From: Azolla caroliniana
Taxonomy: Eukaryota > Plantae > Polypodiophyta
Length of the DNA stretch: 64,000 bases
Reading direction: 5' to 3'
Assembly (NCBI GenBank): GCA_043228905.1
Contig: JBHGNT010000014.1
Coordinates: 4,092,001 to 4,156,000 of the forward strand
Shown: in pieces, positions 3,011 through 54,864 of the stretch
Position numbering within the stretch: position 1 is the stretch's first letter
Layout of the letters: each line of letters starts with the position of its first letter
Notes under the pieces: model-generated
Seen by the model: only the letters and a program-made list of their open reading frames with translations
The model's database searches: none
What the model was told of the DNA's origin: nothing
Translations under genes and position numbers: made by a program

Positions 3011-3013
3011 TCT

Positions 3014-8100: not shown

Positions 8101-8658
8101 GACCGAACTACGCACAGTTCGGTAACCGGATTCATGCCGGCAGAGCTCATGTTTGGGCAGAAGCCGATCATGCCAATGGAACGTACGATCTCCTCATGGG
8201 CAACCGTGGACTGGAGAGACGAGATGAGCCGGGAGGAACTGTTGACGGCGCGTATACGGCAGCTCGAGCGAAGACCGGAGGACGTAGAGTGAGCTACGGA
8301 AAAGCTTCGGGTGGCAAGGACGAGGAACAAAGCCCGGTTCGACCAGATGCACCGGCTCCGACCAAAGAAGATCGAGGAAGGCGACTGGGTGCTAGTCTAC
8401 GACAGCAGCCTCGACAACCAGCACCGAGCAACACAGAAGTTCGCAAGAAGGTGGTTCGGGCCTTACGTGGTCCAAAGCACCAACGACAACGGGACGTACC
8501 ATCTGGCGGAGCTCGATGGCACGAGAATGGCGCTACCGGTAGCTGGGAAGCGGATCAAAGCGTTCAAGAAGCGTCACGACGACGAGCCGGACCCGATTAA
8601 CCTGGACCGGGACGACAAACGATCCGAAACCAACGAAGAACCGACGGGCGGGGAATAA
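5173..8658 (+). pseudogene. pol: RT-RNase H-integrase of B (single frame, several in-frame stops)
   Basis: RT motifs LRFIQDLQP, DLYSGYDQ, LPQG and FLDD; RNase H VDTS...ETDC; integrase HHCC, VDLV, VADRG, NGKVER, WFGPY. No chromodomain. Confidence 0.95.
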
Positions 8659-8731
8659 AGGCTGGACCGGTTTTCTCTGTCCCAACTCAATTTGGCGCAT
8701 GCCGGTGGATGCGCGGTTAGGTGGGGGCGGA

Positions 8732-9357
8732 TGTCGTGAAGAAAACCGTCCACAAGCAGAATCGGTGCACCGGGGCGTAGGAACCGGCTCTTCATGCACG
8801 TGCGCCTTATGTTGTACATAGGAGATCCTAGGCTGGTAGATTCGGTAGGTAGGAAGTAAAGGGGAAACGGCTCCTTCCTTGCCTACAAAAGGAGGGGGAC
8901 GAGGAGGGGCGAAGGGGTCGTGAAGTAAGGGAGGACGAAGTGTTGTCGGATTGTGGGCCGAAGGCTTCTCTCTCTTCCAAACTCCATAGCTTCTTTCTGT
9001 GCAGGTTTCGGGAGGCTCGCGCTACTCTGAGGAATGCCCGAGTGCTTCCGGCAGCACCTCCAACCTACTTCTTCCTTTCTGTATGTTTACGAACAAGCAT
9101 CGGCATCTGTTCGCTGGCATGTTCGGTTGTAACCGACTTCGTGCTTGTTGTTTGTCTTGTTTATATATATTTCTACATACATTCGTGTCTCTCTGTGTCG
9201 CTGTCGCACTCGCGTCTCTGCGTCGAAGGGCCGTGTCCCTGTGAATCTACGCTCGCACCTTGTGGGTCTCTTCCCCTCCCCTTTTCTCCCTTGCTCTTCG
9301 GTACAGGACCCCCGAGGTCCCGCCTCATTCCACGCATCCGCGAGGGATACCTCGACA
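8732..9357 (+). repeat. 3' LTR of B
   Basis: Direct repeat of 2385-3010, followed by the TSD CCGT. Confidence 0.97.
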
Positions 9358-11159: not shown

Positions 11160-14100
11160 TATTAGAGATCTAGGTACTAAAGTAAGCTTAAGATAAGGAT
11201 AAACTAATGATAGATAGAAAGGAGAAAGAGAAAGAAGGGTGCCGATCCACCCGACCACACCCGAGCGAAGGGATCGAGACGGACTCGAGCCTTGATCGGC
11301 GTCCCATACCACCACCGTGGCGTCGAGTCGTACCTGGTAGCTGGCGTGCTCGCTACAAGAGTTGACCCACCACAAGAGCAGAGTCTCGATGTAGTCAAAA
11401 GATGATCCAATGAGGGTAGCTAGGCCTCCTATTTATAGTGATACCCAAGGCCCCCATGCAAGTTCACACTTGACCTAATGGGTTGTCTGAATCCCGAGGA
11501 TTAAAAGTAATCCTCCCCTTCTTTAAACTCTCGTTTAACCCTCACACTTATCCACGTGTATAGAATACTACGGTAAATTCTCACCACGGGATATTAAATG
11601 GTCATGCCCGTAACGTACTCCCCTTCTTTAAAACATTGCACTCTTGCAATGGAAAGTTAGGGAAGTTTGTTCTTAGAGTGTTCTCGCGTTCCCATGTGGC
11701 ATCTTTGATAGATTTGTCCATCCATTTAATTTTAAATTCTCGGATTTCTTTAGTACGTAACGTTTTTGTTTTAACATCGAGAATCCTTTTTGGTACATGT
11801 GGTTTCGAAGATAAATCTTTAGAAGTAACCAGAGCTTCAGTTGTAACTGTGTTGTCGCCAGAACCTAGAAGTTCTTTTAGAAGACTCACATGGAAGACTG
11901 GAAGAATTCTAACACCATCGGGAAGAGCGAGATGATAGACTGATGACCCAATGCGTTTGAGGACTGTAAAAGGTCCACAAAACCGTGGGGCTAACTTAGC
12001 GCACTTACCCGTAGACAATGTCTTAGAATTGTGAGGTACACGTAAAAATACCTTCTGTCCAAGGTTGAATACACGAGGTTGCCTATGATGATCGGCATAA
12101 AAACATATCTTGCATATCCCGAAGAAAGTTTTGCGTACTTCGCAACTCATCATGATGTATATTAACATCAATCGGGGCTCGTGGCTGAAAACCATACATC
12201 AACATAAAAGGACTATATCCCGTTGACGTATGCTTGGAGTTGTTATAAGGAAACTCCAAAATTGGGAGATAACGTTCCCATTTTGATGGTTTTGCACCAA
12301 CAGATGCTCGAAGCATGTCCTCAATAATTTGATTTACTCGTTTTGTCTGTCCATCGGATTGAGGATGATCCGTGGAGCTCATTCTCAACGTAGTTTCTAA
12401 CTTCTTAAAGACTTGTGTCCAGAAGTCACTAGTAAACTTTGGATCTCGATCACTCACGATATCCATCAGTAACCCATAAAAACGAAATAATTCGTCAACG
12501 AATTGGTAAGCCAATTCAGGAGTTGTTACCGTGGTTTTAGTAGCAATAAATCTGGCCATTTTAGTTAGTCGATCAACAACAACCCAGATGGCATCATGAC
12601 CTTTTTGGGTGCGAGGAAGGCTAACAATAAAATCCATGGATATACTTTCCCACTTATTGTTGGGAATGTCCAAGGGATGTAAAAGTCATGCGGCTTTAAG
12701 TTGCTTGGCTTTGTTAACCTGACATTGGTGACATTTAGTCACATAGGTGTGTATGTCAGGGCACATCTTAGGCCAATAAAATTAAGTGGAGATGAGAACG
12801 AGTGTACGATGTATTCCAGGGTGCCCTACTGAGGGTGCATCATGGCATTAAAAAAGAATCCTCTTTTTGACCTCGGGTAAATCTGGAACACAAACCTTCC
12901 CATTACGGTAGAGCAAACCGTTAGCAATGTGGAAGTATTCCTTCGAGGATGTGGTGGTGTCTGTTCCAGACTCAACTCTTGCCCAGTATTTTGCAAAATA
13001 ATTGTCATCAAGATACTTTCCTCGAAGGTGATCATAAAGATCTGATGTTATTTTAGTGAAGCTAAGCATGTTAACTTCACGGATGCGACTTAGTGCATCA
13101 GCGACAGTGTTCATGGAACCTTTACGATATCGTATGGAAAAATCAAAGTCCTGGATGAGATCAGTCCATTGTGTCTTACGACCTTTCAGGTCTTGTTGGT
13201 CACAAAAATATTTCAAGGACTCGTGGTCCGTAGTTACCACAAAGCGATTTCCATAAAGATAATGGTGCCATGTTTTGAGCGCATGTATAACTGCAAATAA
13301 TTCCTTTTCTTGAACGGTATACCGACATTGAGCAGAATCAAGTTTCTTACTCTCGAATGCTATTGGTTTACCATCTTGATATAAGACAACACCTATAGCA
13401 TAATCGCTTGCATCTGTTTCAACCTGAAAAGGTTTTGAAGGATCAGGTAAAAGAAGTGAAGGAGCCTTGCAAACCAAGTCCTTGAGTTCCTTAAAGGCGA
13501 GGTCTAGTGTAGCATTCCACACAATACGTTTTGTAGACTTACACGTTTGACCTTTTAAAATATCAGTAAACGGCGTCGTCAATTGGGAGTAATTACAAAG
13601 AGACTTTCGCAAAAACCCGACAAAACTAAGGAATGATCGAACTTCTCGAATATTCCGAAGAGTGGGCCAAAGCTTGATTTTCTCTATGCGAGAAGGATCA
13701 ATTTCAACTCCTCGTTCGGTTAGAAAGAAAAAAAAATTATTACGGAAAGAGTTACCGAAGTTCTTTGTTGATCGTTGTCTGGATCAAGGCCAGCCGCACA
13801 TCGATCGATCACCATCAATCAAAAGACAAAAGACAAACAAAGAAACATTAGTACATAGCTTTGATACCAAATATTAGAGATCTAGGTACTAAAGCTTAAG
13901 ATAAGGATAAATTAATGATAGATAGAAAGGAGAAAGAGAAAGAAGGGTGTCGATCCACCCGACCACCCCCGAGCGAAGGGATCGAGACGGACTCGAGCCT
14001 TGATCAGCGTCCTATACCACCGTCGTGGCGTCGAGTCGTACCTAGTGCTGGCGCGCTCGCTACAAGAGTTGACCCACCACAAGAGCAAAGTCTCGATGTA

Positions 14101-14322
14101 GTCAAAAGATGATCCAATGAGGGTAGCTAGGCCTCTTATTTATAACGATACCCAAGGCCCCCAAGCAAGTTCACACTTGATCTAATGGGTTGTCTGAATC
14201 CCGAGGATTAAAAGTAATCCTCCCCTTCTTTACACTCTCGTTCAACCCTCACACTTATCCACGTGTATAGAATACTATGGTAAATTCTCACCACGGGATA
14301 TTAAATGGTCATGCCCGTAATA
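11160..14322 (-). mobile_element. Element C: internally deleted chromovirus LTR retrotransposon
   Basis: LTRs at 11160-11615 and 13872-14322, TSD GCCAG, tRNA-iMet PBS (TGGTATCAAAGC, about 13858-13869 on minus) and PPT AAAGAAGGGGAG. Lacks gag, protease and most of RT. Confidence 0.93.
11602..13720 (-). pseudogene. pol: RT C-terminus, RNase H, integrase and chromodomain of C
   Basis: ETDASDYAIG, ISMDFI, VSDRDPKF, TDHPQSDGQ, PRFCGPF and the chromodomain-like ILDVK...FKIKWMD....ATWE. Confidence 0.93.
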
Positions 14323-14374: not shown

Positions 14375-14969
14375 ATCACGACGTTTGAGGACTTAAAAAC
14401 CATATTTTTATAGTTCTTCAACAAAGAGGTGGATCAATGGGAGATGATCAGCCTATTCTACACCATACAGCAGGAACCTACGGAAACCATTCAACAATTT
14501 GTAATCCGGTTCCAGCGAATGCACAGTCAGCTCAATCGGGCACCACTGGAGGAGGAGCGAAATCAATATTCCTACCCGCACTCAGGGAACCCCTGCCTAC
14601 GGTGTGCGTAGTGATTAATTTCCGCACCAGCACGATTGACCAAGTCATAGAAAGGGTAAGGTAAGGGAGATGGAGAAAACAAGCTCGTGGCTAACAATGG
14701 GGGCACTGTAGCGTACATTACCAACAGAAGATGACCTGCGATTTCGGCAAGCTATACAATGTACGATATGTCTGAATGCCGGGCACTCGGCAATAGAATG
14801 TACCATGCGGATACAGTGCATGTTATGCCACTCCAGAACGCACATAATGGACCGATGCGAATATAACTTGCTAAACTAACAAGCGGCACCTGTAAGGCAA
14901 ATCGAACCCCGGAGCAACCGGGAGGAGGAAGAAGAATGTTGGTGGCAAGACGAGCGTTACCGGCCGGCG
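14375..14969 (+). pseudogene. gag: gag fragment of the A/D family
   Basis: QEPTETIQQFVIRFQ...LREPL...DQVIERV...CTICLNAGHS matches the D gag (ETVSQFVIRFQ...IREPL...EQVIDKA). Confidence 0.85.
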
Positions 14970-16726
14970 CAAGATATCCAGAGCATGGAAGAAGACATAG
15001 AGAAGGCCAGAACGGACATGGCCAAGTTGGTCATAGAAGGACCACAACAATCAACACCGGTGGCCCCGGTAACTCGACAGAACGATCAAACCCCGATGAC
15101 GGTGGCAGGCCCAGATACTCATGAATCGTCCACACAGGAGCTCGCCACACTAAGGGAAGACCTAGCAGCACAAGAAGCCTTACGTGCCAGGGAACAAGAA
15201 TTGAAAAAAGCGGCAGAGGAGGAACAAAGGAGAACGGCCAACAACCTCCGCTGAACAGAGGAAAGCTTGAGAAGAGGGCATCAAGCGTATGATCGGCTGA
15301 AAGAAGAGAAAGACAAACTCCTCCAAGAAAAAGAGAAACTCTGGAGGATGGTGGAAGTGGAGATTGAGCGCCTCAAAGAAGAACTTCGGCAACAAAAAGA
15401 TCGTGAGGACCGCGCTCGCCGACTTATAAATCAAAAGCTAAAACAGAAAACCGACAACTTCGATCGACTGCACCGGGACTATAAGCATTTAGATGCCGAT
15501 CATAAGAAATTGACTACCGAAAATGACCGGCAGCAAGAAAAGTGCAGAGAACTCCGGGAGGAAGTTAACCGGTTGACGACGGTAGTGATGGAAGAGTAGT
15601 CGAAGGGAGCCGAACAAGCGAAACAACTGGCGGCAACAACGAAAGAACAACTAGCCTTGCAAGTGCAGTACCATGTGGAAATGGAGTGCACTACAATGGC
15701 TCTGAACAGAGTTTAGACGACATATCAGACCTAACTCATGCATTACAGAAGCCAAGAAGCAGCAACCGCAAGCCTGATCAAACAATTGAAGGACGAAAAA
15801 CAGGTTGTGGAAAACAAGTCGAAGATGGGACTGGGGCGGATCCGGGACATCGTACTGGCATGGAAGAATCGAACGAAGCAATTGGTGGAAGAAAGCTCAG
15901 TACAGTGGTGGTCGAAGTGGGCTAAGCAGGCAACCGAGCTACAGTTGTTGCGGGCAAATGCGAAAAACCAGCGGAAAGAAGGCGACGAAGTTTACATCCT
16001 GGATAGAGAAAGCATTGAAACAATAAAGGATGACCTATCAGATGATTTCCTATCCTTGGCTGGTGAGCAGAGGGTGGCGGTACGCCAATTGGTGGCAAAA
16101 CTGGATGATGACCAATTGGACAACCAACTCTGCTTTGAGAGGTACGAACGGGAACGACGACGGCAAGAAGTGGCCAAGAAAACTGCGGCGTTTAGCATAA
16201 GTGACGAGGAGCCATTTTCAGAACAAACGCCGATTACAACCGGGGAAAGCTAACCAGATAGTACGCAAGAGGAGTCGCTAGAGGAAGGTAATCGGCAGAC
16301 ACCGGGGCACGCCAGACAACAGAACCAGGAGATGCCAAGGCCGGATGAGCCAGAAAAAGAGGAAGAGCCGGTCAGCCTGACGGAGCCGGTAAGATCAGTT
16401 GAGCCGGAAATGGAGACAGAGCTGGTTAGACTAACGGAGGTGCCAAGGCCGGGTGAGCCGGAAAAAGAGGAAGAGCCGGTCAGATTGACGGAGCCGCAAG
16501 CGACAGATGTTAACCAGCAACAGCCACAACCGGAGCTGGAGCAACAAGAGGAGCCGCCACAGCCGCAGGAACAGCAGGAGGGGGAACAGGAGTAGCCGAC
16601 GACAGAACAGCTTCCCGAGGAACCATTGGAAGCCTTAGATCAAAGTATTCTGGACATTTTAGAGGATGAATGAAGGCCGGATAGTGGGATTCGACGTATA
16701 AGGTACTGTCCTACGGGCGTGCCATA

Positions 16727-17123
16727 TGTTAGCCGACTAGCAAGGGAAGTCCAGAATGGGAAATGAGGGGATAATTAATAACCGGGAGCTAATTATATAT
16801 TTATATAGAATTATTATGATTTTGAGAAGCGAACGGATGGACACGGAATCGGTATGCCGATCCGGATTTGAACCAGTTCGTTGCCGGTTGTCGGTTGGCA
16901 CCGGTTTGTACCTAAAGCCGGAGATCTATAAAAAAGGCCGGCTAGATTGTAATCATTAGCGGATAATTAATAGAGTGATGTTGTTCTACATCTTAATCAT
17001 TGTTAATTACCGTTCTGTGCTAAGTGTAATTTATCCTACGCGTGTATTGTGACTAATGATATTGCCGCTATTAACCCATTAGGGTTCCATTAACCATCAG
17101 TCTAACTCTATCTCACTGCAACA
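16727..17123 (+). repeat. Probable 3' LTR of A
   Basis: TGTTAG...GCAACA with an internal TATAAAA, in the same position and upstream context as the 3' LTR of D. The partner LTR is outside the window. Confidence 0.7.
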
Positions 17124-17974
17124 CCCCTTTGGTGAAGTGTCTTAAAGGGACACCCTGTGTTAGGCCATTGTCCGGCCCTAGCGATAACACAAAGAAGTAT
17201 GCTAGACAACAAGATACCTCATGGTGGGAGGTGTTATTTAGTGATCAACAAGAAATTATCAATAATTCCTTCATTGGAAATTGGGCATTGCAAAGGTCAT
17301 TTACGTTGTCGCGAAAATACGACGGGGATACGTGAACATTGAGGCAAGACCCCGAGCCTTTGTCTAGAGGATATCAAATTCGTGTATTTATATACTAAGA
17401 ATTAACCGAAATGAGAAAGATTAACAAATTTCATTAATAAAAGAGAAAGAAAGATTACAATCAATCCCAAGATTGGGATTACAAAAGTTTTATCTTATGG
17501 AGATGATTAGAATAATAGATTAGAGGAAATAAGAGATTATGATTTTTGAGTGATATGGCTTTGACAAGGAATTTTGGATTTTGAGAGATTGCTTCCGTAT
17601 GGAAATTATGGTTTACTTGAGAGATAGCTTCCGTAGGGAAGATTAGGGTTATTGGCTTCGATAAGATAAGAGAGCTCCCCAACAAACGAAAAAAAATTTA
17701 GATAATATGGAGAGTCCCTTTGTGTAGGATAAATAAATAAATAAATATGGAGTTCTCCCTTGATCATAGCCTTTTCCCTTTTTGTTGCATGGCCTCTACT
17801 TTTAGTTGCCTAGCTTTTTCTTTTGGTTGCATGTGACTGTCCACATGACCTTTACTTTTTCCATGCACTCCCTTCTTTAGTTGCTTGCGTCCACATGGCC
17901 TTTACTATAGTTCTCTTCACTTTACTTTAGTTTGTTGCATGATCCAATCTTTCGTTCGTCCGCGTCCAACCTCG

Positions 17975-18779: not shown

Positions 18780-19850
18780 GTGTGAAGATTCACACGACAA
18801 CGTGGTCCATACAACACTCGCATGGTTCTTAATCGCCACCTCATGCACATAATGCAAATCTTGACAATTTGCTCCATCCACAACAAAGAGACATTTATGT
18901 GGGACTGAGAATGACAAAAGCTCGGTGGCAAGGAAACTTGCAAGAGATAAAGGTTGGGATGTATATTGCCACACTTGTAGATCATAATGAACTAGGGCAC
19001 CAATTCTGTATTGGTAAAGTATTGGATGTGGTGATGCATGAAAAGAAAAATAAGATTTTAAGTCTATAATGGTGCATTAGTATAACACTAGAAGCAAGAA
19101 TGCATTTACAGGGAAGCATACATTGGAGATGATAGAATGTCCAACGTCAAGTGGAAATAAAAAGAGGAAAAGAAATATTCATAACACATCGACCCTTGAT
19201 ATTAGTGAGGTGGATATAATTGTGTACGACTTTACATTGACAAAAGCTGGATGTTTAAGGAAGTCCACAATAGACAAGTATAAAAGAGAAATTGTCAAGC
19301 CTACAAGTCATATAAGATCGAAGGCGAACCAGATCTTGTAAACATAATTTGGAGTCACAACATTTAGTTTTAGACAATGACAATGCTTTGATTGGTACAT
19401 CTGAAGATGAGGAGGATGAGTCACCATTGTACATTAGCTACAGTAGTGATTCTCAAGAAAGGGGTGATGATAGTGATTCAAATAACTCTTGAATGTATCT
19501 TTGGCATGAAAGTGTAACAAATTTAAGCTTCTAAGAACTCAAATGATGTAAAAGTTCGAAATTTTAAAATCTATCGTTGTTTGTGAATATTATTTGTCAC
19601 CTTAAAACATTAGTTGTCAATTTTACGGTAAAATACATTATGTATCTTTTCATATTTGGCCTAATTTTCTGAAATTTTAGTTTTATGAAATGGTGAAATT
19701 TTAAGCTTTTCCATTGAGTCTTTGAGAACATGTCATATTGGTATCAACGTGTTTTGTGACATGGTTAAAAATACCTTGAAATCAAACGGAACATTCCTTA
19801 TCCTTCCATTTGTGCACGATCCTTCCACTTGTGAACGCGAACATATTCTT
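18780..19850 (+). mobile_element. 3' end of an unclassified repeat, probably a DNA transposon, with a decayed coding C-terminus
   Basis: Decayed reading frame (FCIGKVLDV...VH*YNT...DIIVYDFTLTKAG). 19349-19850 is homologous to 47918-48398 and both end in CCTTCCAYTTGTG x2 plus GAACGCGAAC. Confidence 0.5.
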
Positions 19851-20877
19851 ATGATTTTTTATATAAAGGTGGAGATTTAAAATACGTAAACAACTATCAA
19901 GCCATCATGGTTGGCTTGCTATTGGTAAAACTATTTGAATGTATAATGGAATCAAAGATAGGTGCATGGGCTGAAAAAAATGGTATGAGAGCTTATGGAC
20001 AAGCCAACTTTCAAAAACACCATAGCACCATTGATCACCTTGTCATCCTTCGCGTATTAATGGAAGAAAGTCGCATACGAGGTAAAGGTTTATATTGTTG
20101 CTTCGTAGACTTTAAGAAAGCTTTTGATATGGTACCACATGCACATCTTTGGAGGCGAATGGAAGAAGTCAAGGTGCCAAGTGAATATATGCTTGGAATC
20201 ACCCGAATATATGAGAAGGTTATATGTTGTGTGCATATGAGTGATAAACTTTCAGATTTTTTCAATAGCACTATTGGTGTTAAGCAAGGATGCCCACTCT
20301 CACCAATCTATGCATTGATGAATTGGAAGAAATGGTTGTTAGGTTTGTAAAGGAAGGTGTTGAAGAAGTTGCAATTGGGAATGTTGTTATTATGTTTTTG
20401 CTATATGCGGATGATGTAGTGATTTTTGCAAATACTTCAGGAGATGCGCAAAAGCTTATGAAGGCATTGGAAAAAAATTGCATGCATACGAAACTAAATG
20501 TTAATAGCTCTAAAACAAAGATGATGCGTGTGAAGAGCCAAAAAAGAGATAAGACATGCATTATGTACAATAATGAGCCACTTGAATGTGTGGAAAGTTT
20601 CAAATATCTTGGTCATGAAGTTCCTTCAAATCATAAATAGAATGAATGTACTACACGTGTCACGGACAAGTATAATAGAGTAGAACAAAGATAAGACTAG
20701 AGAACAAGAGAGAGTAAAAGAACAAGAACTCAACTTATAGAACCCGTAACTTGTGTTGTTCACCTTGATTAGAATCAAGGTGCACATGAGTATTTATACA
20801 AGAAGTTAGGGCTATGTAAGCCAGCTAGAAATAGAGTATGCATGAGGATGCATGCAATGGAGTACGCATGAGGATGC

Positions 20878-22196
20878 TAACTGTACAACGGAGGTATTGT
20901 TCGAGGATTTGGTTGACTCTTTCGGTTTGGCCATCCGTTTGAGGGTGGTGCGCGGTTGACAAGTTCACAGAAGTCCTGAATGTCTGTAGAAGTTGGCGCC
21001 AAAACTGGGAGATAAATTGAGGACTGCGATCAGAAGTGACATCCTCAAGCAAACCGTGTAAGCGGACGACATTTTTCAGAAAAAGGGTAGTTGTCTCCTC
21101 CCCCGAAATGGTTTTCGAACATGGGACAAAGTGAGCCATCTTCGAAAACCGGTCGACGACCACTAGCACCGTGTCATGGTCACCGACTCGAGTAAGGTCG
21201 GTGATAAAGTCCATGGAGAGAGAAGCCCAAGGTCGACTAGGGATTGGAAGTGGGTGTAGAAGGTCGTATGGATGATGGTGAGCCGCTTTGGAGCGAGCGC
21301 AGACGTCACCAGTTTTGATAAATTCTTTGACCAATTTCCAAGGTTGAGGCCAACAAAACCCCCAAGAAAGCAATGCCAACGTTTTGGCAACCCCAAAGTG
21401 TCCGACAAGAGGATCATCATGGCAAGTTTGTAGAACTCGGAGGCGACATGGGCCAGCTGGTACGTAAAGGAGGTGATTACGATAGAGTAGCCCATCTTGA
21501 GTTGTAAAGTGACTGAGATCCGAGCTTTGCCTTTCTTGGGATGAGTTGTTGAGGCGCGCCATGATGTTAGTAGCGAAAGGGTCAGACGTGGTTGCTTGGG
21601 CAATCTCGTTGAGCAAGGAATCATCGTGCAACATATAGGTTGCGAACATGTGGAGTTGATCGAGCCGCAATAAACAATGTGATTGCTGAGAATAAGCTTC
21701 GTCACCTGGGCGCAATGCGAAATCGGGTCGCCGAGAGAGAGCTCCACTTTCCCATGTTGAACGCCAGGTCAAACCAAGATTTCGAAGTCGTAGTCGGCAA
21801 GAAAAGATGACCAACGAGCCTGCCTCCGATTCAACGTACGAGTGGTGGTGAAGTAGATGAGATTCTTGTGGTCGGTCACCACCTGAATACGATGTTGTGC
21901 CCCATCCAGATAGGGTCGCCATTCAGCGAAGGCCGAGATGATAGCTCCAAGCTCCTTGTCGTAGATCGGATAATTGATTTCCGGGGCTGTAAACTTCCGA
22001 GAGTAGAAGGCAACCGGATGTAGGGTGTCGTCGTCATCGGGTTGGGACAAGACCGCACCTATGGCAAAGTCGGAGGCGTCGGTTTCAACCTAGAAAGGGC
22101 GGGTGGGGTTGAGGTGGACTAAGAGGGGGGTAGAGAGAAAAGCTGCTTTGAGGGCATTAAAAGCATTGTGTGTTGCGGGGGTCCAAAGAAATGGAG
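20878..22196 (-). pseudogene. pol: RNase H-integrase of E (C-terminus deleted)
   Basis: [40 protein letters not shown] and AHHPQTDGQTER. Confidence 0.93.
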
Positions 22197-22653
22197 TGTT
22201 GTTCGGTCGACAATTGCTATTTTGCTGACACAGTATAAGATGAACATTTGTACCATACGTTCTATCAAGAAGTTGTGGTTAAACGAATAGACACGAATGA
22301 TCTATAAACTAATCGGTGATAACAGACACTGAGATCGTGACTTATGTAATATAGTTTAGACAGAAAGAACTAGATGGCAAGAAACAATCCGTACATAGAG
22401 ATTTCCTAACCAAACTTTATATAACTAAATACAACGATAGATTTTTACAATGCCTTCGGTTCCTTTTATAGGTAACCTGAAGGTTTCTTCTCATCAAGAA
22501 ATCCTATTGCCTATAATTATCAAGAATTACAAAACTTCGTAACTAACTATGTCCTATTCAGCTATCTGTTGAGTCATCAATCCAAACTGTCGATCCGACT
22601 CCGACTTCGAACATCTTTCCGATTCTAACGCATCCATACTTGTCTGGGTAACA
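22197..22653 (-). repeat. 3' LTR of D
   Basis: Direct repeat of 30800-31268, differing by substitutions and two CCGACT units. Confidence 0.95.
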
Positions 22654-22699
22654 CTTGGCACACCTGTGGGCCAGGACGTTGTCCGGCGAACCCATGGGA

Positions 22700-25432
22700 A
22701 CCCTTTACTCCTGCTGCTCTAAGGAAAGATCCTCCTCCATCTCCAAATCCTCGTTTGTGTCGTCCTGCAAAATGTTGAATAGTGAGGGTTCTACTTCCTG
22801 TGTTGCCATGCCTTGCTCGTCTTCGTCGTCATCTTCGGTATCCTCCCCGTCGTTGTTTTCTTGTCAGGTTCCTTCGGTCGATGGTCTTGGCTCCGCTTCT
22901 GTTTCTGCATCTGTATCTGCTTCCGGTGCCCCGAGTCCAGGTGTTTTGGTGACTCTTTTGGCTTCGATATTGTCTAACTCGACAGATGTCTCGACATCAT
23001 GCTTGTCGGATTCTTGCATGATTCAGTTAATTTCTTCTTTAAAATAAGCCGCCATGTCGTATAGGTCCTTAGCAATATCTTCTTGAACTGTGGTCATTGC
23101 TTCCTCCCACATCTTGAGGAAGCCTTTTGCCCTGAACTTTCCTATTTTCTCTGTCGGCTCTTAATAGCTAAAGCTCCATGGATTGTGCTGACCATGTTTG
23201 CCAACCCTTCTCCAACAATTCATTGACCAATTTTAGGGTGTTAATTCGGTGACGTCTTATGATCGCTTGAACCCTATCCTGAGTCATTCTAGCCTCAAAC
23301 TGTGTTGTTGCAAATGTTTTCCGTAAATCAATGATTACTGCATTGGTATGTCCTTCTGCCTGCATCAGCTTAACTTGTGCCACTAAGAGGTCAAGTCGCC
23401 GTTTCTCGGAGACTGTTTGAATTTTTGCACATCGGTTTTCTAGCTTCGCTTTCTCTTCATTCCAGTTGTTCTGCTGCTGAATTATTTTTCCGTTGATTTC
23501 GTTTATCAGTTTGTTTGTACCAGCCAATTGTGTTGTAAAACAAGTCTCTTGGCTCTTGATATACTCTTCCATTTCCTCGACTTGTTGCCTTGTAGTCTCT
23601 TGCTGTTGGGCTAACTGTTGGTGTAAATCTTGTATTACATTATCCTTTTCCCCCAAACATCTGTCGGCCGTCGTTTTTGCCGACTGTAATCGAGCCTCCA
23701 TTTCCCTGAACCTGTCCACAGTCTTTTCTGCCTTAATTTTTGTCTCTCTTCGTGCTTGTTTAGCTTGGTTAAACCTCTTTTGTAATTCCAAATCCGTCTC
23801 CAAAGGTTATCTTTGTGACTCTGGTTGGAATATCTATTCTCTCGCTTTTTCTAGAGCCACTTGTTCTTCTTGTAGTTTATTTTTCAAGTACTGATTTTCT
23901 GCCTGCATCCGTTTATACTGTGCATTAAGCACATTTGCAGTTGTTGTAGCCTGTTTGTATAATTCGGCCATATCCCTGGCCGCTCTGCTAGCCTTTCCAT
24001 ATTCTCGGTGTAATGGTGGTATTTGAATGGCTTCACCTCTATTTTTAGCATGTCGTTGTCGACCAATTCTATCCACTTCCGCTTGCTCGTTTGGTTCGAT
24101 AGCTCCACATAATGATTTTTGGATCATTATTTGATCTCTGTGCTCTTGCGCCATTCTTTCCGACACTTCTTGCAGACTTTTAGCTAACCATTCGACCAGT
24201 TCATATGATGTTCCAAACTGCAGAATGGCAGCTAGCTCATGTGCTGCTACCGGGATGTCGGACAAACCGAGTGCCTCTTACACCGTTGCCGTTTGGATTG
24301 ACATGAGGTATTTGTGTGCTTTGGGTGGCTTGATCGTTAGTTGTCTTTTTCTTCTACGCAGGTTGTTCTTGCTCTGTTCTAGAGTATCTTTGGGACCGTT
24401 GTTTCACCCTTCGTTGCTTCGACGGTTGCTGGTCAATGTCGACTCGTCTCGATTCCTGCTACTATGACGGTTGCTCGTCTGTCGTCCCTCGTTGTTGCAT
24501 CCTCAGTGGTTGAGACTCCGGCGGTTGAGTCGGTGATTGCTGGGTAGGTTCGGGCTGGGGTATCGACTATTGAGACTGCGTCGACTGTTGTTGTTCCGAT
24601 TCTTGTTAGTGCCTTGGTTCCGGTTGGTCAAATTCGGTCTGAGTGGTATCGTCTTGCGTTGATTCTTCTTCCCTGCACTCTTCTCGTTGGACTTGTCGTC
24701 GGGTTTGGGATGATTGTACCTAAGGCGGCCGACGCACCTCTGATCAGTTTTCCGACTCTGAAGTCGGAAATAATATCGATAACCAACGAGCAGAAATCGG
24801 CTTCATTGGTTTTCCTTTCTGAACTCCGTTTAGTTGCTCTCTTAGAGCATTTGCCGACAATAGCCCCCAATCAAAAGCTTTGCCTTCATAAGCGGCGATA
24901 ATAAATCCGGCCCTCTTTTTGGGCATATAGTAGAATCTGGGACTAACAAACCCTACTTCCAATAAAAATTTTGCAGCTTCATGAAAAACACATTCCTACC
25001 TCCTTGTGTCTAATACGCTTTGGTAGAGGGGGAATATTCACCAAAATAGGACCGTAAAACATCATTTGTGACCTTGTTGACAACGTCAAACCCGCCTCTT
25101 GGCATCTCCAACACAGCCCTTACCTTCTTATTCATGATCGTCGAGACATCGATTTCTGCCAACAGAGCTTCCACGTTCAGGTGCGGCTCTGTTTCTGCGA
25201 CTTTCAAAAATCCTTGTAACTTATTGCGAACGAGCCAACGGCGCAAGTTGTCAGATACGACAATCGGCATGTTGTCATCGTCGATTAACAGATCGTCACT
25301 CAATGATGGTTGTGAGAAACGTTGTGGGCTATGGCGACAAAAATCAAAAAACCTGTGAGCTCGAATGCATTTCTGCTTCTGTGGTGAAACAATCATTACA
25401 GAAATAGGTTTTAAGAGATTAATTTTTTGCAT
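22700..25432 (-). pseudogene. Extra ORF of D (homolog of the A extra ORF; coiled coil and acidic tail)
   Basis: ORF pieces 25010-25432, 24744-24962, 23834-24265 and 23168-23803; heptad-rich; N-domain aligns with A 9652-10400. Confidence 0.8.
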
Positions 25433-25607
25433 GATGCCTAGGGAATAAAAGTACTATTAATGTTGTAATGACTAGGCGTACTAGTGGAGTGATGGCTAGA
25501 AATAGTAATAATGACTAATAGAAATATGCCTCCACTATTACTTATAGCCTTTGGAAATTACTCCAAGAATCTCTTCGTGAGAGTTAGTTATGATTTTTTT
25601 TTTTTTT

Positions 25608-28600
25608 TTACTTTTCTTCCGATTCATCCTTGAATGGATTTTTCGGCATGTGTCCACGATATGGTTTAAGCCGGAAACCATTGACCCATTTCGGTAAAAT
25701 CTCACCTAATAAGGTTCCCAGTTGATACGTACCATTTTTACTATTCACGATCCAAACTAGTCCCGTCCATCTATATCGAAGTTTTCCTGGCATCGCCCCC
25801 ATCTTGGTCTGGAAAACCAGTACTGGTTTCCCGATTCCGAATTGAGATTCGGTTTTCCGTCGGTGTCGATTTACAAATGCCTTGGTTTGCCTTTGCTTGT
25901 GCTCTAAATCTCTCATAGCTTGTAGTCAGTCTTATTCTAACAACAATAAAGATTCTTTCCGAATTTGCTCTGACTGTAGTTCATTTAATATTTCGGTTGC
26001 TTGTATTCGGAGTGTCGGAATCTGGAATTTGATTGGCATTACTGCCTCCAATCCAAAAGCCATTCGGAAAGGTGTTGATTTAATAATAGATATTTTGTAC
26101 AACGTGCAATATGCCCATAAAGCACTATGCAACTTTTGGTCCCAGTCCGTATGATTCTCATTTACTATCTTTTTAAGTATCGTCTGGAGGGTTTTGTTTG
26201 TCGACTCCGCCAATCCATTCGCTTGTGGATAGTAAGGAGTGCTTTTCTTATGAACCACTGCATAGTAGGTAGACAATTCATGAACAAGTTTGTTAATGAA
26301 ATGCGTCCCTTGATTGCTCACTAATTCTATTGGGCAGTCGAATCGACACCATATACTTTCGTACAAATTTTTGCTGCTGGAGCTGCGGTATTATCCCTAA
26401 GAGCTTTAGCTTCTACCCACTTTGTAGAGTAGTCAGTAGCCACTATAATATATCTATTGCTTGTTCTTACTATTGCCAGTTTGAAAGGGCCTACAAAATC
26501 CAACCCCCATTCATGGAAAGGTTCAAGAGGTAACACAGGTTGAAACGGCATTCGGTCCCTTTCTGTCGGTTGTCCCATACGTTAGCATAAATCACATTTT
26601 CGACAATATTTGATCGCATCCTTCATCATTGTCGGCCACCATAACCCACTGTTCCATATTTTTCTTGCTGTGGTTTCCCTAGCATAGTGTCGTCCTGCAA
26701 TTCCACAGTGCGATCCCCGAAGAATGACCGATTTTTCAAATTGTTGTACTCTTCTTCTCCAAATAACATCTGCTCCTTTATGATACAGAGTGTCGTTCAA
26801 AAGACAAAAATTACGACTCCGTACCGCCAACCTTTTCCTTTCGTCTACCGATAGATGATCGGGTGGTAACCCTGTTGTAAGAAAGATTGTCATTTCTGAG
26901 ATCCAACCATCCTCACTTTCTTCATTTACACCCTGTGCATTTACTGCTTCCACTCGAAAAAGCTGAACATCCGGAAAATCATCCTTGACATCCGTGCCTT
27001 CTTCTCCTGTCTCCAGTCGACTGAGATAATCCGCCATTGCATGCTGTACTCCTGGCCGATGTAAAATGTCGAATTCGAATTCTTGGAGTAGAAGAGTCCA
27101 TCTTGCTAACTTGCCAGTTAACTCTTGTTTCGAGACCAAATAAAGAAGAGCTGAATGATCAACATGAAATGTAAACTTTTTCCCCAAAAGATAGTGTCGA
27201 AACTTATTGACACCATAGATCATTCCTAAAGCTTCCCTCTTAGTGGTAGAGTAATTTCTTTCTCTCTCAGTGGTAGAATAGTTTCTTTCCGTTGTTGAGA
27301 GTTTCCGACTAGCATAGTAAACTGGCTTGCACCAATTCGGTTCTGTTAACTGCATTAATGCACTTCTAATTGCGATGTCTGATGCGTCGACAAAAACATG
27401 GAATGGCTTATTCCAATCAGGTGGTTGAACAATTGGAACTTTGGACAACATTTTCTTCAGACAATCATATGCATCCTATTCCACACTTGTCCACTAGTGA
27501 CCCCGAATGCACATTTAGCCGGATTTAAACTAAGCCGTCCTTCCCGACATTTCTCCAAACATAGTCATAAATGCTCAAAATGTTCGGTTTTCCGACTATA
27601 AACAACAAAATCATCCAAAAATACTTGCATAAAGGCAGGAATGTAATTCCCAAATATTTCCTGTATCACTCTTTGAAATGTCGCCCAAGTGGTCTTCAAG
27701 CCAAACATCATTACTATTGCTACAAACACTCCCCATTCTATGACAAAAGTTGTCTTTTCTTGATCTTCCGGATTCATCCGAACCTGATTATAACCACTAA
27801 AACCATCTAGGAAACTATATACTTCATGGCTAGCTACTGCATCCAATATACCATCCGTAAATGGTAATGGAAACACATCCGTAACGGTAGCCGCATTTAG
27901 TTTCTGGTAGTCGACACATACCCGAATTTTGCCATTCTTTTTCGGAACAACGACAATTGGACTTAAGCATGTCGATTTTTTCACCGGACGAATAAACCCT
28001 ACTTTCAAAAGTTTATCTATTTCTTCTTTAACTTTAATAGCATAATTAGGATTTAATCGGTACCTACGTTGTTGAACTGGCTTTGCATCCTTATGTAGGT
28101 TGATTTGATGTTGACAAAAAGTTGGATCTAGTCCCTTCATATCTTCAAAAGACCAGGCAAAGACATCCTTATATTGCTTTAATAATGCTGTTAATCTTTG
28201 TTTGTCCACTTCTATCATATCCTTAACAATGAGTACTGTTTTCAACTCATTGTCCCCATCTTCTTCTGCCAAATTTATTTCCTGCATTGCTGAATCTTGA
28301 ACTCGTTGGGCCACCTTCATCTCTCTATTGGTAGCTTCTTGTTGGAGTCGTATCTCCTTCATTGCTTGCTCATCTATTGGCAATTGCTCCTGGGAATCCA
28401 CATATAGCGTCAAGGCTTGACATAAAATATCTACTTCGAACAACAGAATGATTTTCGGATTATCATCAAAATATTGATTTTCTTCGACCTCGTCTAATCC
28501 TTCCATCATATTGACGGACTCAACATACACATGCAAACACTATTTGCTTATCGCAACCTTGTTTTGTGTCGAAACCCGGATTTTCGTTTTGCCTTTTCTA

Positions 28601-30750
28601 AATGTTAGTTGATTCTAATTCCAATTCTGCTTGATGTTAGCAATCTTTAACCACGATCGCCCTAATAACAAAGGATATGCACCATGAGCTTCCAAATGAA
28701 GAATTACTGTTGATATCAGAAAACTATGACCACCCAATACCACCTCTAATTGGCAGAGTAAACCAATTGGTCGTACTGTAGTGGTATCCGCCATTCTTAG
28801 CCAAAGTGGACAAGCTTCCCATTTAGTAATTCCCAACCTATCATAGGTGGTTTTATTAATGACATTCACTCCTCAGCCCCCATCGATAATCGTATTTTCG
28901 ATTTCCTGACCCTGAATTATTACTTTAATTGATGGATTTTGCTCATCCATGATTGAAGGGTTGGTGCTTGGCTGACTATAGTGTACCGATACTTGTTCTG
29001 GCCCCTTTTGGGCAATCAATGTCACCACTTTTTTGGTAAATCTAGGGACCAACTTCAGTAATCTGGTCAGTGGTAATGATACTTGGAAATGTGCCAAGAG
29101 CTTCCAAGTTTCCTCTTGTTCCAGTACAACAATAACTCCTGGTAATTCGGTAGCTTGGTTAATTATATTGTCTTGGAGCATCCAGTTTACATTATTTTTG
29201 TTTGCTTCCTCTACCCATTCGGCTGCTTTCCAAACTGCTTCCTGAATTTCCCACTCCGATTGTTTACTTTTGCTTCTAGTGGTTACTTGCTATATTTCCG
29301 GTATAACCATATTAACCGCTCGTCCTTTTTCCTTTAGCAGGACACTGATTAGCATAATGACCAGTTTGACAGCAAATATAACAAGTAGGAACAAATGTTC
29401 CACTTCCCTCGCCTTGCTCAAACTCACTAGTCCCATCATTTTGCATAAACTGTTGACCATCATCCGGCGATTGCTGAAACTGTCGTGAGGCTTTCAATTT
29501 GTAGAATTTTTTATTTTTATACCGGTTCTGCTTAAACTATCCTCCATTTTGCTGATTCATATTCGGTGTTACCGAGAATTCTTGATTTTGTTGAAAATTA
29601 TTTTGTTGAAAATCTTGATTATGCTGAAAATTACTTTGTTGAAAGGACTGATTATTTTGTTGAAAAGTTGGATTCTGTTGGAATTTATTTTGCTGAAAAG
29701 CTTGATTTGTTTGCAATTTATTTTGTTGACTCTGTGGAAAACTGTTATGTTGGTATCCATTATTGAATGAATTCTGGTTATTGTGGTACCCATTTTCCGG
29801 AAAAATTTGTCTTACCGGAGCCGTCGTCTTATTGAACAAATTATACTCACATTGCTCGACCGAATGAAGTTTAGAATGACATATTGTGCAATGTGTATGT
29901 AGACTACATTCGATCATCAAATGACCGGTATTTAAACAAGTAGTACACTGAACTGCTTGTCGAAAATGTAACTCCTCTATTGTTGGTAGTGTACGTTTAG
30001 TGGTGACATATCCATACTTCGTACATTTATCGGTTGTCAGCCCATAGCGATTGCCTTATCAATCACTTGCTCGATATTCTGATTCAAGAAATCGAACACC
30101 TTCAGTGTTGTTCGTAATGGTTCACGAATTGCTTCAAGGAATACATCCTTCAATTCATCGTCCAGAATAGGCCTAGAAATTTGCAGTTGCAAATTCTGAA
30201 AACGAATCACAAATTGAGACACTGTTTCTTGCTGCTCCAGATACAACGCATATGATTGCGCTATCAAATCTTTTTGAGGTATTTGGCGATGAAATAACTG
30301 CAGAAATTTATTGTTCAATTGTTTGAATGTTTCGAACCCACAGAGACCATTTTGCGCAAACCAATTAGCGGAATAACCCTCTAATGACAAAACAAACTCA
30401 GCAATCTTCGACTTATCTTCAGCTGCCGCTGACAGTCTCTAAGCTCCATGGTTAATCTCCCATGTTGTCAGAAAATCCCTCACATGTGCTTCTGCATCAG
30501 CTCCCTCACGGAACTTCGAGTACGGATAAGGCATATTGTCGTCACTCTAGATAACGTAAAATGATACCTCTTCTGGCTGATTTTCATCGGAAGACTAGCT
30601 ATCAGTTAAATCAGGAAGTACTGACCACCTTCTACTTGTTTTCGGTTGTAATCCCTTGGCCAATTCTGTCTCTAGCGTCTTCGTAACAGAACGCGTACGA
30701 GGACGTTTAAAATCGACTGATATATTCGGACCAGACGACATCCATTCGTC
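25608..30750 (-). pseudogene. pol: gag-pol of D
   Basis: Gag with Cys/His knuckles and a Q/N-rich tract, protease IIDGG, RT (VCVDYQKLN, FLDGFSGYNQ, FLDD), RNase H (with a duplicated ERNYSTT) and integrase. Confidence 0.95.
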
Positions 30751-30799
30751 TTGTTCTTTGCTATATGCAGATGTAACCGGGAGTGCCAAAATTATACTG

Positions 30800-31268
30800 T
30801 GTTGTTCAATCGACAATTGCTATTTTTCCGACACAGTATAAGAAGAACGTTCATACCGAACATTCTATCAAGAAGTTGTGGTTAAACGAATAGACACGAA
30901 TGATCTATAAACTAATCAGTGATAACAGACACTGAGATCATGACTTATGGAATAGAGTTTAGACAGAAAGAACTAGATGGCAAGAAGCAATCCGTACACA
31001 GAGATTTCCTAACCAAACTTTATATTACTAAATACAACGATAGACTTTTACAATGCCTTCAGTTCCTTTTATAGGTAACCCGAAGGTTTCTTCTCATCAA
31101 GAAATCCTATTGCCTATAATTATCAAGAATTACAAAACTTCGTAACTAACTATGTCCTATTCGGCTATCTACTGAGTCATCGATCCGAACTGTCCATCTG
31201 ACTCTGACTCCGACTCCGACTCCAAACATCTTTCCGATTCCGACGCATCCATACTTGTTCAGGTAGCA
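30800..31268 (-). repeat. 5' LTR of D
   Basis: TG..CA repeat flanked by the TSD TGGAG at 31269-31273. Confidence 0.95.
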
Positions 31269-33723
31269 TGGAGTATCTTTCCGTATAAGTTGGATGAGAG
31301 GTTGGACTAGGGAAGAGAACCCGTCTATAAAAATTTGCAAAACCAAGAAACGATTGTACCTCTTTTAGCCGAGTCGGAAGAGGCCAATCAGTGATTGCCG
31401 CGACCTTGCATTCATCCATCGTGATCCCGGTAGGTAAGATCATGTAACCTAGTAATTCGACAGAGGTCCAATCAAATTCACATTTCTCACTTTTGGCGAA
31501 GAGCCCATATTCTCAGAGTTTGGTGAGAACTAGGTGAACGTGGTGAGTGTGCTCCTCCATGTTGGAAGAAAAAACTAGGATGTCATCAAGGTAGATGACC
31601 ACGAAATGATCGAGATACTCTCGAAAAATATCATTCATCATGTGCTGGAAAACGGCCGGAGCATTGGTAAGGCCGAAAGGCATCACTTTGTACTCGAAAT
31701 GTCCATATCGCGTCCGAAAAGTTGTTTTCCACTCATCCCCAGGCTTAATGCGCACTAAATTGTAGGCGCCCCGAAGGTTGACTTTGGAAAAGATATGCCC
31801 CGTTCGGAGTCGATCAAGGAGCGCTGGAATTAAGGGTAGGGGGTAACGATTACGTACCGTAACTTTGTTGAGACCCCGATAATCCAAACATAAGCATAAG
31901 TAGCCATCCTTTTTTCTGACAATTAAGATTGGTGCCCCGGCCGGTGATTTGGAGGGTTGAATGAAGCCCTTCACGAGATTCTCAGCCAAATATGTGCGGA
32001 GAGCCTCAAGTTCGGGTTTGGATAACCCATAGATAGGACCGAATGGGGGATGCTTGCCAGGTTGGAGTTCAATTGGGCAATCGTAGGGACGATGAGCTGT
32101 TAACCGATCGGCATTCCGCTTTTCGAAGATGTCGGAAAAGTTGATATATCGAATGGGTAAATTGGTGATAGGAACGGTGACGTTTCCCGACACAACAGCT
32201 AGTGTAGCGACCAAACTGGACTTGACCGTAACAGAATCAAGAGAGTGTCGTAACTGAGTAGGAATTGGCGTTCTTGGAAAAGTGATGGAGCGGCTACACC
32301 AATCCACCATCGGATTGTGTGTCTCCAACCAAGATAGCCCCAACACAATCGAATGTCAGGGAGTCGCGATGAGGTAGAAAGTCAGTTTCTCCTGGTGTGC
32401 CCCGATTTGAAGTACCAACGGGATAATGGCTTCGGTAACCACCCACGTCGAGAGAACCCGCCCGTCAATCGCTTCAATGGATATGGGTTGTGATGTGCGG
32501 ACGGTGGGGATATTATGTGCACATACAAACGATTTATCGATAAAGCAAGTAGATGCTCCGCAAAGTCGAACCAAAACAAAGACTTACTTGCAAAGAAAAC
32601 CCTCCTAATGGCGGTACGGACTTGTAGGAGCATGGAGAAGGTGAGTAACGGAAAGCGTCCAACGGCATGGCTCCTACTGCAGCCGGACTTGGTCATTTTC
32701 CTGTTGTCGAGGAACCTCCGCAAGACGTGCACGATGGAATTGGTGTCGAGGGCCTCGCACAGGACAGTGGTGGATGACATGGTCGGGGTTGCCACAATAG
32801 AGACAAAGTCCATTGTCCTGACGATGTTGGCGTTGGGCTTCAGTTAGTGGTTGGAACCAAGCATGATCGATCTCCATCGGGGTATGGGAATCGACCTCCA
32901 TTGTGGTATGGGTTTCACTAACTGATGGTAACGTTGGCATGGGCGACAAGTAGGGCCTGGTGATTGTTGCATTCCGCGAAGAAGCCTGAGATCTGTGAGT
33001 CCCCCGTTCTTCTTGACGAAATTCAAAAAGATGATTGTCACACTGGACAGTTTGGGAGATTACTTGAGACAACGATGTGGGTTCTGGGAAGTTTAAGAGA
33101 AGAGTCTTGACATCATTTCGGAGACCGCGACGGAAATGGTCGCATAGGGCTTGGTCATCCCAACTAATATCATAGGCAATTTGGCGAAACTCTGAGGCAT
33201 AGAGCGAGGCATGACGTGAGCCTTGTTGGACAGAATAAAGCTTTGTGAGTGTTCGTCGCTGATCTGTCTCGTCAAATGTCGCTTCGAGCTCCTCAATGAA
33301 AGTGGTGAAGTCCTCCAAGAGAGGGGTGAGGTCTCGATCAAGAGTGCAAACCACGCTTGTGCTGGCCCAGAGAGAAGCGTGCTGACAAGCCCAACCTGAG
33401 AAAAGTCGTTAGCATACTGTTGGGGCTGTAATCGGATGATAAGCCGAATTTGGTTGATGAAGCCTCAAAGATACGCCCTCGTGTCGTTGAATTTGTCGGG
33501 TAGGCTGATGGTTGGTTCGAGGACATATGGATGAGAAGAGGACGTGGTCGGGGTAGGTCTCGACAGTGGTTGTGACTTGGCAACTAGTGGATTTCTTGAA
33601 GTGCCGGATTCTTGAAGTGCCGGATTGCAACTCTCGTAATGATTCCCGAAGGATTTCACTCTCTAGCTGAAGTTGTTGCAAGGCTGCCATGATTTGGTTT
33701 AGGTTGTCGATGGAGTCGGACAT
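31269..33723 (-). pseudogene. pol: gag-protease-RT of E
   Basis: PDKF gag motif, CLYCGNPDHVIHHC knuckle, [34 protein letters not shown] and YLDD. Confidence 0.95.
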
Positions 33724-33751
33724 GGTAGCAAGAAAAGCAAGGTGAACAAAC

Positions 33752-34176
33752 TGTCACGGACAAGTATAATAGAGTAGAACAAAGATAAGACTAGAGAACA
33801 AGAGAGAGTAAAAGAACAAGAACTCAACTTATAGAACCTGTAACTTGTGTTGTTCACCTTGATTAGAATCAAGGTGCACATGAGTATTTATACAAGAAGG
33901 TAGAGCTATGTAAGCCAACTAGAAATAGAGTATGCATGAGGATGCATGCAATAGAGTACGCATGAGGATGCATGCCATAGAGAATGCATGAGGATGCATG
34001 CAGCCTAGAAAATGAGAATACATGCAAGCTAGGAACTTCCAATGTTCAATCTACACTATATGAAGTTGAATTAAATACAAGGATGCATACGTAGCTCAAG
34101 TGGTAGGGTTGCTCAATAGAGTCCATGAGGTCTTGGATTTAATCCCTACCTTCTTTCATGGCATATGTCTATGACA
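33752..34176 (-). repeat. 5' LTR of E
   Basis: TGTCA..TGACA ends; first 220 bp match 20658-20877; internal GCATGAGGATGCATGC repeats. Confidence 0.93.
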
Positions 34177-34551
34177 ACACGCCGCTTAGAGGCAGGAAAG
34201 CAAGCATATTATGCATTTGAGAACACATGCAATAGTGGAGATGTTAAGTGTTGGGTCCTCAAGCAATAAATTTTTGACACTTTGGTGACACCAATGCTTC
34301 TCTATAGACTGGAACTATGGGGTGATAGCATCCCAAAATCTACTTGGAAAGAGTTTGAAAATGTCTAAAACCATTTTCTTACAAAGTTTCTACAAGTTAA
34401 AAAACAAACACCATACATCTTCCTCCTCCTTGAGACGGGATCACTTCCCATTGAGATCATGGCCATAGAAAGGGTTATTGAATACATGCTTAAGGTTTAA
34501 AAAAGTCTCTCACATCAACTTCCTAGAATTGCATGGGAAGAAAGCATAAAG

Positions 34552-52799: not shown

Positions 52800-52802
52800 G
52801 AT

Positions 52803-54821: not shown

Positions 54822-54864
54822 CATACACCCTCTTGAGTGTGTAGGGAAAGATTATAGTTGCATA

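Follow-up and report, generated by a model that had tools for sequence, protein, structure and literature searches.

How does a retrotransposon without a polypurine tract (PPT) begin its plus strand? The question is raised by two related elements, A and D, in the 64,000-nucleotide stretch of DNA analysed here (the window). In a preliminary description, a site resembling the 3' end of tRNA-Arg had been noted at the PPT position of both elements, and priming of the plus strand by tRNA-Arg had been proposed. Both sequences quoted in it are present where it placed them, and the site exists, although it extends over 40–41 nt instead of 17. The feature preceding the 3' LTR is real and conserved, and very likely functional.

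Elements A and D and their lineage

Element D is complete, lies on the minus strand and interrupts the pol region of another retrotransposon. Its 3' LTR (22197–22653) and 5' LTR (30800–31268) are about 91% identical and an identical 5-bp TSD is found on either side (22196–22192 and 31273–31269). The 5' LTR is followed by an 11-nt spacer (30789–30799), predicted to pair with U5, and by the PBS (30776–30788), which, as had been described, begins 11 nt past the LTR; it matches 12 of the first 13 nucleotides of the complement of the tRNA-Arg(UCU) 3' end. The gag-PR-RT-RH-INT region (25611–30438, minus strand) contains stops and frameshifts and has one RNase H; its protease was assigned by position and motif and gave no Pfam hit. 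After pol comes an extra sense ORF region (23171–25453, minus strand), which is partly coiled-coil-like and matched no Pfam family at the cut-off.

Element A, on the plus strand, is broken up by nested elements, with its 5' LTR outside the window. It retains an RH-INT region (3–2374), 63% and 67% identical to that of D, the 3' part of an extra ORF (15255–16592), located upstream of the tRNA-like site, and a 3' LTR (16727–17189), for which the bounds were taken from homology and loose ends. This LTR is 75–77% identical to the LTRs of four metagenome loci (L017, L037, L065 and L069), which are flanked by an A-like site and a PBS; loose ends in read contigs at its right border support that border. 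The LTRs of A and D are dissimilar, as had been stated, with no mutual alignment better than E 0.6.

The clade formed by A, D and their relatives is Athila-like Ty3/gypsy, "Athila-like" being as far as a tree without lineage-labelled references allows. Ty3/gypsy features are the TG...CA LTR pair with TSD (in D), the order GAG-PR-RT-RH-INT and a tRNA PBS. With Athila, of the OTA superclade of plant non-chromoviruses, as described in PMC6317226, the clade shares this domain order, a single RNase H, the lack of a second one (aRH) and of a chromodomain, a 5-bp TSD, an extra ORF and a tRNA PBS. It differs in the tRNA, the dominant Athila PBS being that of tRNA-Asp, Asn or Ala while the clade uses Arg(UCU), as in D, or one other tRNA; it also has a tree position apart from the seed-plant group, and A and D are without a PPT. 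The "Tat-type" label given earlier had to be abandoned: no second RNase H was found in the D translation, and the intact relatives P0159, P0160, P0162 and P0163 each show a single RNase H in Pfam. A tRNA-Arg PBS as in D is common in Tat (TatI–III, Ogre and Retand), with shares of 64% in TatIII, 89% in Ogre and 30% in Retand (PMC6317226), but the archaeal-type second RNase H of Tat is absent here. A chromodomain, which along with self-priming marks chromoviruses (Tcn1), gave no hit in D or its relatives. Phygy and Selgy, described with a 4-bp TSD, no extra ORF region and a tRNA-Trp or tRNA-Ala PBS (PMC6317226), are excluded by the 5-bp TSD and the extra ORF.

P0160 is an intact single-ORF relative of 1830 amino acids (81% over RH-INT), in which all four RNase H motif residues are present; GAG-PR-RT-RH-INT is contained in one ORF in both P0160 and P0162. 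The named relatives of the RT are fern proteins (53–63%), while those of RH-INT are from a fern (53%, partial), liverworts (39–42%) and seed plants (up to 42%, longer matches). In an RH-INT tree (FastTree, 51 rows), A and D group with six unnamed proteins (SH 97) and sit in a 31-row group of fern, liverwort or unnamed proteins (SH 96), next to a group of 18 rows, mostly from seed plants (SH 99).

The cassette preceding the 3' LTR

The tRNA-like site is a cassette of 40 nt in D (22695–22656, minus strand) and 41 nt in A (16684–16724, plus strand), the latter with one extra base in the T-arm part. It is made up, in order, of nucleotides 49–56 of tRNA-Arg(UCU), a 7-bp hairpin and the tRNA 3' end minus one C. 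Aligned with the complete tRNA-Arg(UCU) of the metagenome contig L002, it reads as nucleotides 49–56, an 18-nt insert, the ends of which resemble nucleotides 57–61, and nucleotides 62–76 minus one C; the cassette thus fits a real tRNA sequence. In D, the first part (22688–22695) matches the 5' strand of the T-stem and the start of the T-loop, and would be PAS-like on minus-strand DNA. The second part (22670–22687) is the inserted hairpin, covarying across families and laid out as 3 bp, a bulged T, 4 bp and a 3-nt loop. The third part (22656–22669), one C shorter than in the tRNA, contains the 3' strands of the T-stem and of the acceptor, ending in CCA; it deviates from the D family at 22665 and 22662, as A deviates from its own family at 16712 and 16699. 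A 2-nt spacer (22654–22655) separates the CCA from the 3' LTR of D. The reported distance of exactly 2 nt between CCA and LTR holds for both elements, with an LTR start that is verified by the TSD in D and rests on homology in A.

The last 18 nt of the tRNA, minus one C, are matched at 16 of 17 positions in A and at 14 of 17 in D, and these two cassettes are the only sites with at least 13 matches on either strand of the window. By itself the hexamer GTGYCA is not enriched in the window (45 seen, 53 expected), the cassette is not recognised by Rfam, and ARAGORN finds no tRNA in the window.

To assess how far the host keeps the cassette, both junctions were compared with contigs from four public runs (three studies, three organism labels); the comparison covers contigs at least 80% alike and hence yields no count of PPT-bearing members. 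At 22662 and 22665, 89–97% of the depth differs from D, and at 16712, 95–99% differs from A (four of four runs). The family majorities at these three positions restore the tRNA-matching letter, giving one shared core. Similarity among the relatives of D breaks at 22694, about 40 nt before the LTR, where loose ends are seen in all four runs. The U5 end of the A LTR (17135–17184) has about ten times the depth of the remaining LTR, again in four of four runs, and so is common to many families.

Metagenome contigs, in 40 of 64 parts of the collection, were searched with a pattern composed of the 15-nt core, two free bases and TGT, which gave at least 123 matches. The matches listed comprise 114 family junctions, which all belong to a single assembly series, one backwards-read PBS (L005) and eight matches from other sources; these eight show nothing of the upstream cassette and were treated as chance. 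The T-arm 8-mer, which lies outside the search pattern, is present 17–21 nt upstream with up to two mismatches in 108 of the 123 matches listed, that is, in 108 of the 114 family junctions, against a background of 2.3% of 20,000 random positions. The six family junctions without it comprise two that are truncated, three with three mismatches and one with a microsatellite. Conservation of the 3' 15 nt in the matched set is circular, since the search pattern fixes them; independent support for these nucleotides therefore comes from the read majorities and four unselected junctions only. Scans of viral contigs gave no match, and a scan of prokaryote genomes gave one distant 32% match (L122), which was set aside.

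The LTRs of the junctions form seven clusters and 33 singletons, many of them truncated, and A or D proteins match 49 of 121 loci. Between CCA and LTR the two bases are TG in 43 junctions, GG in 39, AG in 14, TA in 10 and others in two. The cassette is common to A and D in spite of unrelated LTRs, 63–67% RH/INT identity and different PBS types; it is kept across families with unrelated LTRs. Six segments running from PBS to cassette (L010, L020, L022, L031, L059 and L073), about 1.8–2.3 kb long, keep it too, and these units are non-autonomous, with no open frame above 150 amino acids. Being kept in units without a long ORF, the cassette behaves as a cis signal would. In these units the PBS lies 2 nt from the LTR and both ends show the same tRNA-complementary 10-mer symmetrically. 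The length of the spacer between the CA of the LTR and the PBS depends on the family and is about 2–11 nt (30789–30799 in the window; L006, L017, L029, L040, L010), and pairing of this spacer with U5 is predicted in D and L017. At this end of the element, trimming by integrase would need to go beyond the usual 2 nt.

No purine run precedes the 3' LTR of A or D, in agreement with the preliminary description: the longest in the last 20 nt is 3, against 5, 8 and 12 in the same 20 nt of elements B, F and C of the window, and neither A nor D has a canonical PPT before its 3' LTR. The maximum is also 3 in 108 junctions, which had been chosen by the search pattern. Six further LTR starts in metagenome loci lay outside that selection; four of them carry the full cassette, slightly decayed, one is joined to a reversed PBS leader and one is the left LTR of a pair. 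None of the six has an abutting purine tract. Farther upstream, no conserved purine tract was seen in 107 junctions, in which the purine fraction is 0.39–0.62 in 10-nt bins up to position -120. A displaced PPT was considered and rejected: D and A do have an upstream purine stretch, yet it is unconserved, and the start of the D 5' LTR at TG with a TSD also rules it out.

The same purine profile bears on the idea that the cassette does not prime at all but acts as a signal in packaging, RNA processing or chromatin, resembling a Pol III B-box or a tRNA, with some other fragment serving as primer. The 8-mer overlaps the T-loop sequence that acts as B-box in tRNA genes, and this gives the idea some ground. 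We regard it as highly improbable, however, for it offers no reason why a CCA should be fixed at exactly 2 nt from the LTR and lacks the conserved upstream purine tract from which the plus strand might otherwise start.

Locus L046 is unusual: at about 520–900 a PBS leader meets an LTR at the U3 start and not at the U5 end, and a head-to-head element pair adjoins. The join is either an inversion between two tRNA-related sites or a misassembly.

Candidate primers of the plus strand

The structure of the cassette was analysed in 51 distinct 40-nt sequences, namely 50 canonical-length haplotypes of 71, plus D. Compensating changes occur in six of the seven hairpin pairs and 94% of the cells are paired, counted over related sequences and not over independent events. 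None of 500 shuffles reaches the covariation score, and slid controls are 32–49% paired. The tRNA-matching columns hold their sequence identity while the hairpin changes with compensation. The hairpin mismatches, 10 G-T against 8 A-C, favour neither strand.

Cofolding of the tRNA with the minus strand, with RNA energies as a proxy, predicts a three-way junction. In the model, 27 of the last 28 nt of the tRNA are paired in two common haplotypes and at least 24 in the other three shown. With the folded tRNA as reference, predicted net binding amounts to -20 to -25 kcal/mol in the five commonest haplotypes, -18 kcal/mol in A and -9 kcal/mol in the decayed copy of D. Complementarity thus extends, as far as sequence and model go, to both the tRNA 3' end and the 5' strand of its T-arm, and the cassette complement on minus-strand DNA resembles the PBS-plus-PAS layout of retroviruses. 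The commonest change in the T-arm part, T to C at nucleotide 55, fits wobble pairing with the tRNA; it fits equally a sense-RNA helix predicted by RNAalifold.

In our view the plus strand is probably started by a second host tRNA-Arg(UCU), which would bind to the minus-strand DNA and prime from a point 2 nt short of U3. The tRNA at the ordinary 5' PBS would prime the minus strand, and RNase H would clear the genomic RNA off the cassette. The last 15–18 nt of the second tRNA would then pair with the minus-strand DNA, one C being bulged, and the freed 5' strand of its T-stem (nucleotides 49–56) would pair with the second segment, beyond the looped-out hairpin, in the manner of a PBS plus PAS. 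Extension of the CCA by RT would add 2 nt and then copy U3, after which RNase H would remove the tRNA and integrase trim the 2 nt. The proposal of a tRNA-Arg-primed plus strand is supported by deduction: the minus-strand cDNA would present a second PBS for tRNA-Arg(UCU) in the geometry of the PPT. In its favour are the match to a real tRNA sequence, the conservation across unrelated LTRs and the second match, to the 5' strand of the T-arm. An element's own RNA would pair with its own cDNA whatever the sequence, so that a fixed identity points to an outside partner, and since the identity is fixed to one tRNA even in families in which RT also handles another at the 5' PBS, the tRNA itself is suggested as that partner.

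Paired with DNA, a tRNA is a substrate of RNase H, so the survival that it would need until extension counts against tRNA priming. The two active sites of the Ty3 enzyme are about 13 bp apart (PMC5371799); speculatively, such a spacing would put the nuclease past the bulge (about 11 nt from the end) but short of the junction (about 15–18 nt). No unremoved plus-strand tRNA was found at any locus by a search that allowed for the missing base; four longer matches in this search were a PBS read backwards (L005) and three unrelated contigs.

The RNase H problem would be sidestepped, and no second tRNA needed, if the cassette RNA of the element itself, as a tRNA mimic, survived RNase H, was cut after CCA and primed the plus strand. 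It would act like a non-purine PPT, with a T-arm-like hairpin and a 10-nt tail still paired to the cDNA. Position and 2-nt geometry are those of a PPT, and below the hairpin a T-stem-like helix can form in the sense strand, with 91% of cells paired. Choice of the PPT in Ty3 depends on local geometry (PMC5371799) and, in the available text of PMC3185511, PPTs share no common consensus. Nevertheless, this self-priming, though the main rival reading, appears unlikely to us. It gives no reason why families with a different tRNA at the 5' PBS should match this one exactly. The T-stem-like helix shows no compensating change, its 5' side departing by broken pairs only (the 3' side is fixed by the search); the equivalent of T-loop A58 covaries with the hairpin and is not fixed; and shuffled sequences fold as well as the copies in the window do (z -1.3 to +1.2).

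Pairing of the cassette with the element's own PBS, as a panhandle that circularises the RNA or primes itself, had been put forward as an alternative. The two sites do pair well in eight of 13 contigs that span cassette, LTR and PBS (-22.7 to -25.8 kcal/mol), those with an Arg(UCU)-type PBS. The other five (L017, L037, L065, L069 and L022) have another PBS and pair at -8.9 to -9.9 kcal/mol with an unchanged cassette, which contradicts self-pairing as a general mechanism, and four of these five have A-like LTRs. Loose ends behind the A LTR show the same other PBS in the A family of the window, and a panhandle would leave the plus strand without a primer; we give it hardly any credence. Short-read assemblies may collapse 5' and 3' LTRs, but the link from cassette to PBS runs within one LTR family. 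Contigs with the other PBS keep the cassette, so it is independent of the element's own PBS. The A-type PBS may correspond, in plants, to an Arg(UCG)-type end. Its first 12 nt also occur in a human PBS that is labelled Trp, formerly Arg (PMC4724089).

L002, the source of the tRNA sequence, starts with a complete antisense tRNA-Arg(UCU), CCA included (ARAGORN; Rfam tRNA, 71 bits). The copy is located at 2–77 in element orientation (locus 1190–1265, plus strand), about 475 nt before the cassette, the contig beginning 1 nt before it, and is fused to a stretch with 88% similarity to the internal 3' region of L054. It probably arose when synthesis read through the minus-strand primer and then mis-jumped. 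A tRNA gene carried by the element was rejected as an explanation, as the copy looks like a single rearranged one. Elsewhere, at L048, two host tRNA-Lys-like genes (1062–1137 and 2756–2828, element orientation) lie beside an insertion of the clade.

The antisense copy in L002 is also the product expected of a plus strand running through the minus-strand primer at the 5' site, and this argues, even though the contig begins only 1 nt before the copy, against a reversed polarity, in which antisense RNA would be replicated with the cassette as the true PBS and the 5' site priming the second strand. The cassette is admittedly the more textbook PBS, with its fixed 2-nt spacing and long complementarity, while the 5' site is short (10–13 nt), about 2–11 nt from the LTR and variable in its tRNA. 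Against this, both window LTRs (of A and D) carry a TATA-like motif in the sense orientation and gag-pol has the usual orientation. Reversed polarity, which would still be without a PPT, is very unlikely.

Known systems and other features of the window

Priming by a PPT is the stated rule for plus strands (PMC3185511). As with the PPTs of Ty3 and HIV-1 (PMC3185511), the primer end proposed here would lie just upstream of U3 and be removed before integration. Unlike a canonical PPT, the cassette is GC-rich and mixed (purine runs of at most 3), and it would be primed in trans, by an RNA of the host.

In HIV-1, the anti-PAS consists of tRNA nucleotides 48–55, freed when the 3' end anneals (PMC3675109), with which nucleotides 49–56 of the cassette nearly coincide. 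HIV-1 PBS and PAS are alike to the cassette in that one segment takes the tRNA 3' end and a second, 8-nt segment the 5' strand of the T-arm (PMC3675109). In HIV-1 both segments belong to the genomic RNA and serve to start the minus strand, whereas the cassette complement occurs on minus-strand DNA only, at the position of the PPT. The bipartite or double PBSs of Ty3, Ty1 and Drosophila Gypsy likewise involve a second tRNA-related site near the RNA 3' end and T-arm contacts (PMC5371799, PMC1635307). As described there, however, these sites are complementary to the tRNA on genomic RNA and have no priming CCA, Ty3 keeps its PPT, and in Ty3 and Drosophila Gypsy the second site functions in starting the minus strand or in circularisation. 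The cassette, by contrast, is tRNA-sense on the RNA and replaces the PPT.

No LTR lineage with such a layout had been known to the authors of the preliminary description, and none was found described, nor was a tRNA-primed plus strand or the cassette, in the literature searched, which included few subscription papers. The available text of Neumann et al. 2019 (PMC6317226) surveys PBSs and has "PPT" only once, as an abbreviation, and that of PMC3212995 is unrelated to the cassette layout. The element is of a known kind; we could not find its priming route described. On balance, we favour the view that a whole clade of integrase-using LTR elements from non-seed plants has dispensed with the PPT, priming both strands by host tRNAs, two different ones in some families, and the plus strand through a dedicated PBS-plus-PAS docking site with a three-way junction, present on minus-strand DNA only.

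A natural, abundant clade without PPT would mean that the plus-strand primer is replaceable while precise, integrase-compatible ends are kept. It would make testable how RT and RNase H tell primer from substrate, whether the plus-strand step can be governed by host tRNA or 3' tRNA fragments, and by what route a PPT might derive from a tRNA site or give way to one. LTR finders that score PPTs, and orientation calls based on the PBS, would miss or flip such elements.

Several other mobile elements are present in the window. The TSDs of elements B and F (2385–9357 and 40150–43781) are 4 bp long and of the form NCGN; the two share a PBS, have G-rich PPTs and agree with the description of Phygy by Neumann et al. 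(PMC6317226). F has LTRs that are 100% identical over 807 nt and a 2-kb interior. Chromovirus-type pieces are located at 11160–14322 and about 20658–33971. Element C, with a chromodomain and a normal PPT, is inserted in the extra ORF of A, while the pol in which D lies belongs to another chromovirus-type element. A gag fragment (14380–15070) is found within the extra ORF of A, between two copies of a short ORF stretch, and is likely a template-switch rearrangement. The integrase of A is interrupted by an insertion (about 960–1550) that is 69% similar to 35365–35680. A LINE-type endonuclease and RT are encoded at 43638–46628, with related pieces at 19321–20657 and 34177–34551. At 51971–60104 and 54743–55474, a pair of 900-nt repeats, 85% identical, ends in runs of telomere-like hexamers and heptamers, and a 122-nt tandem array is situated between the two copies.
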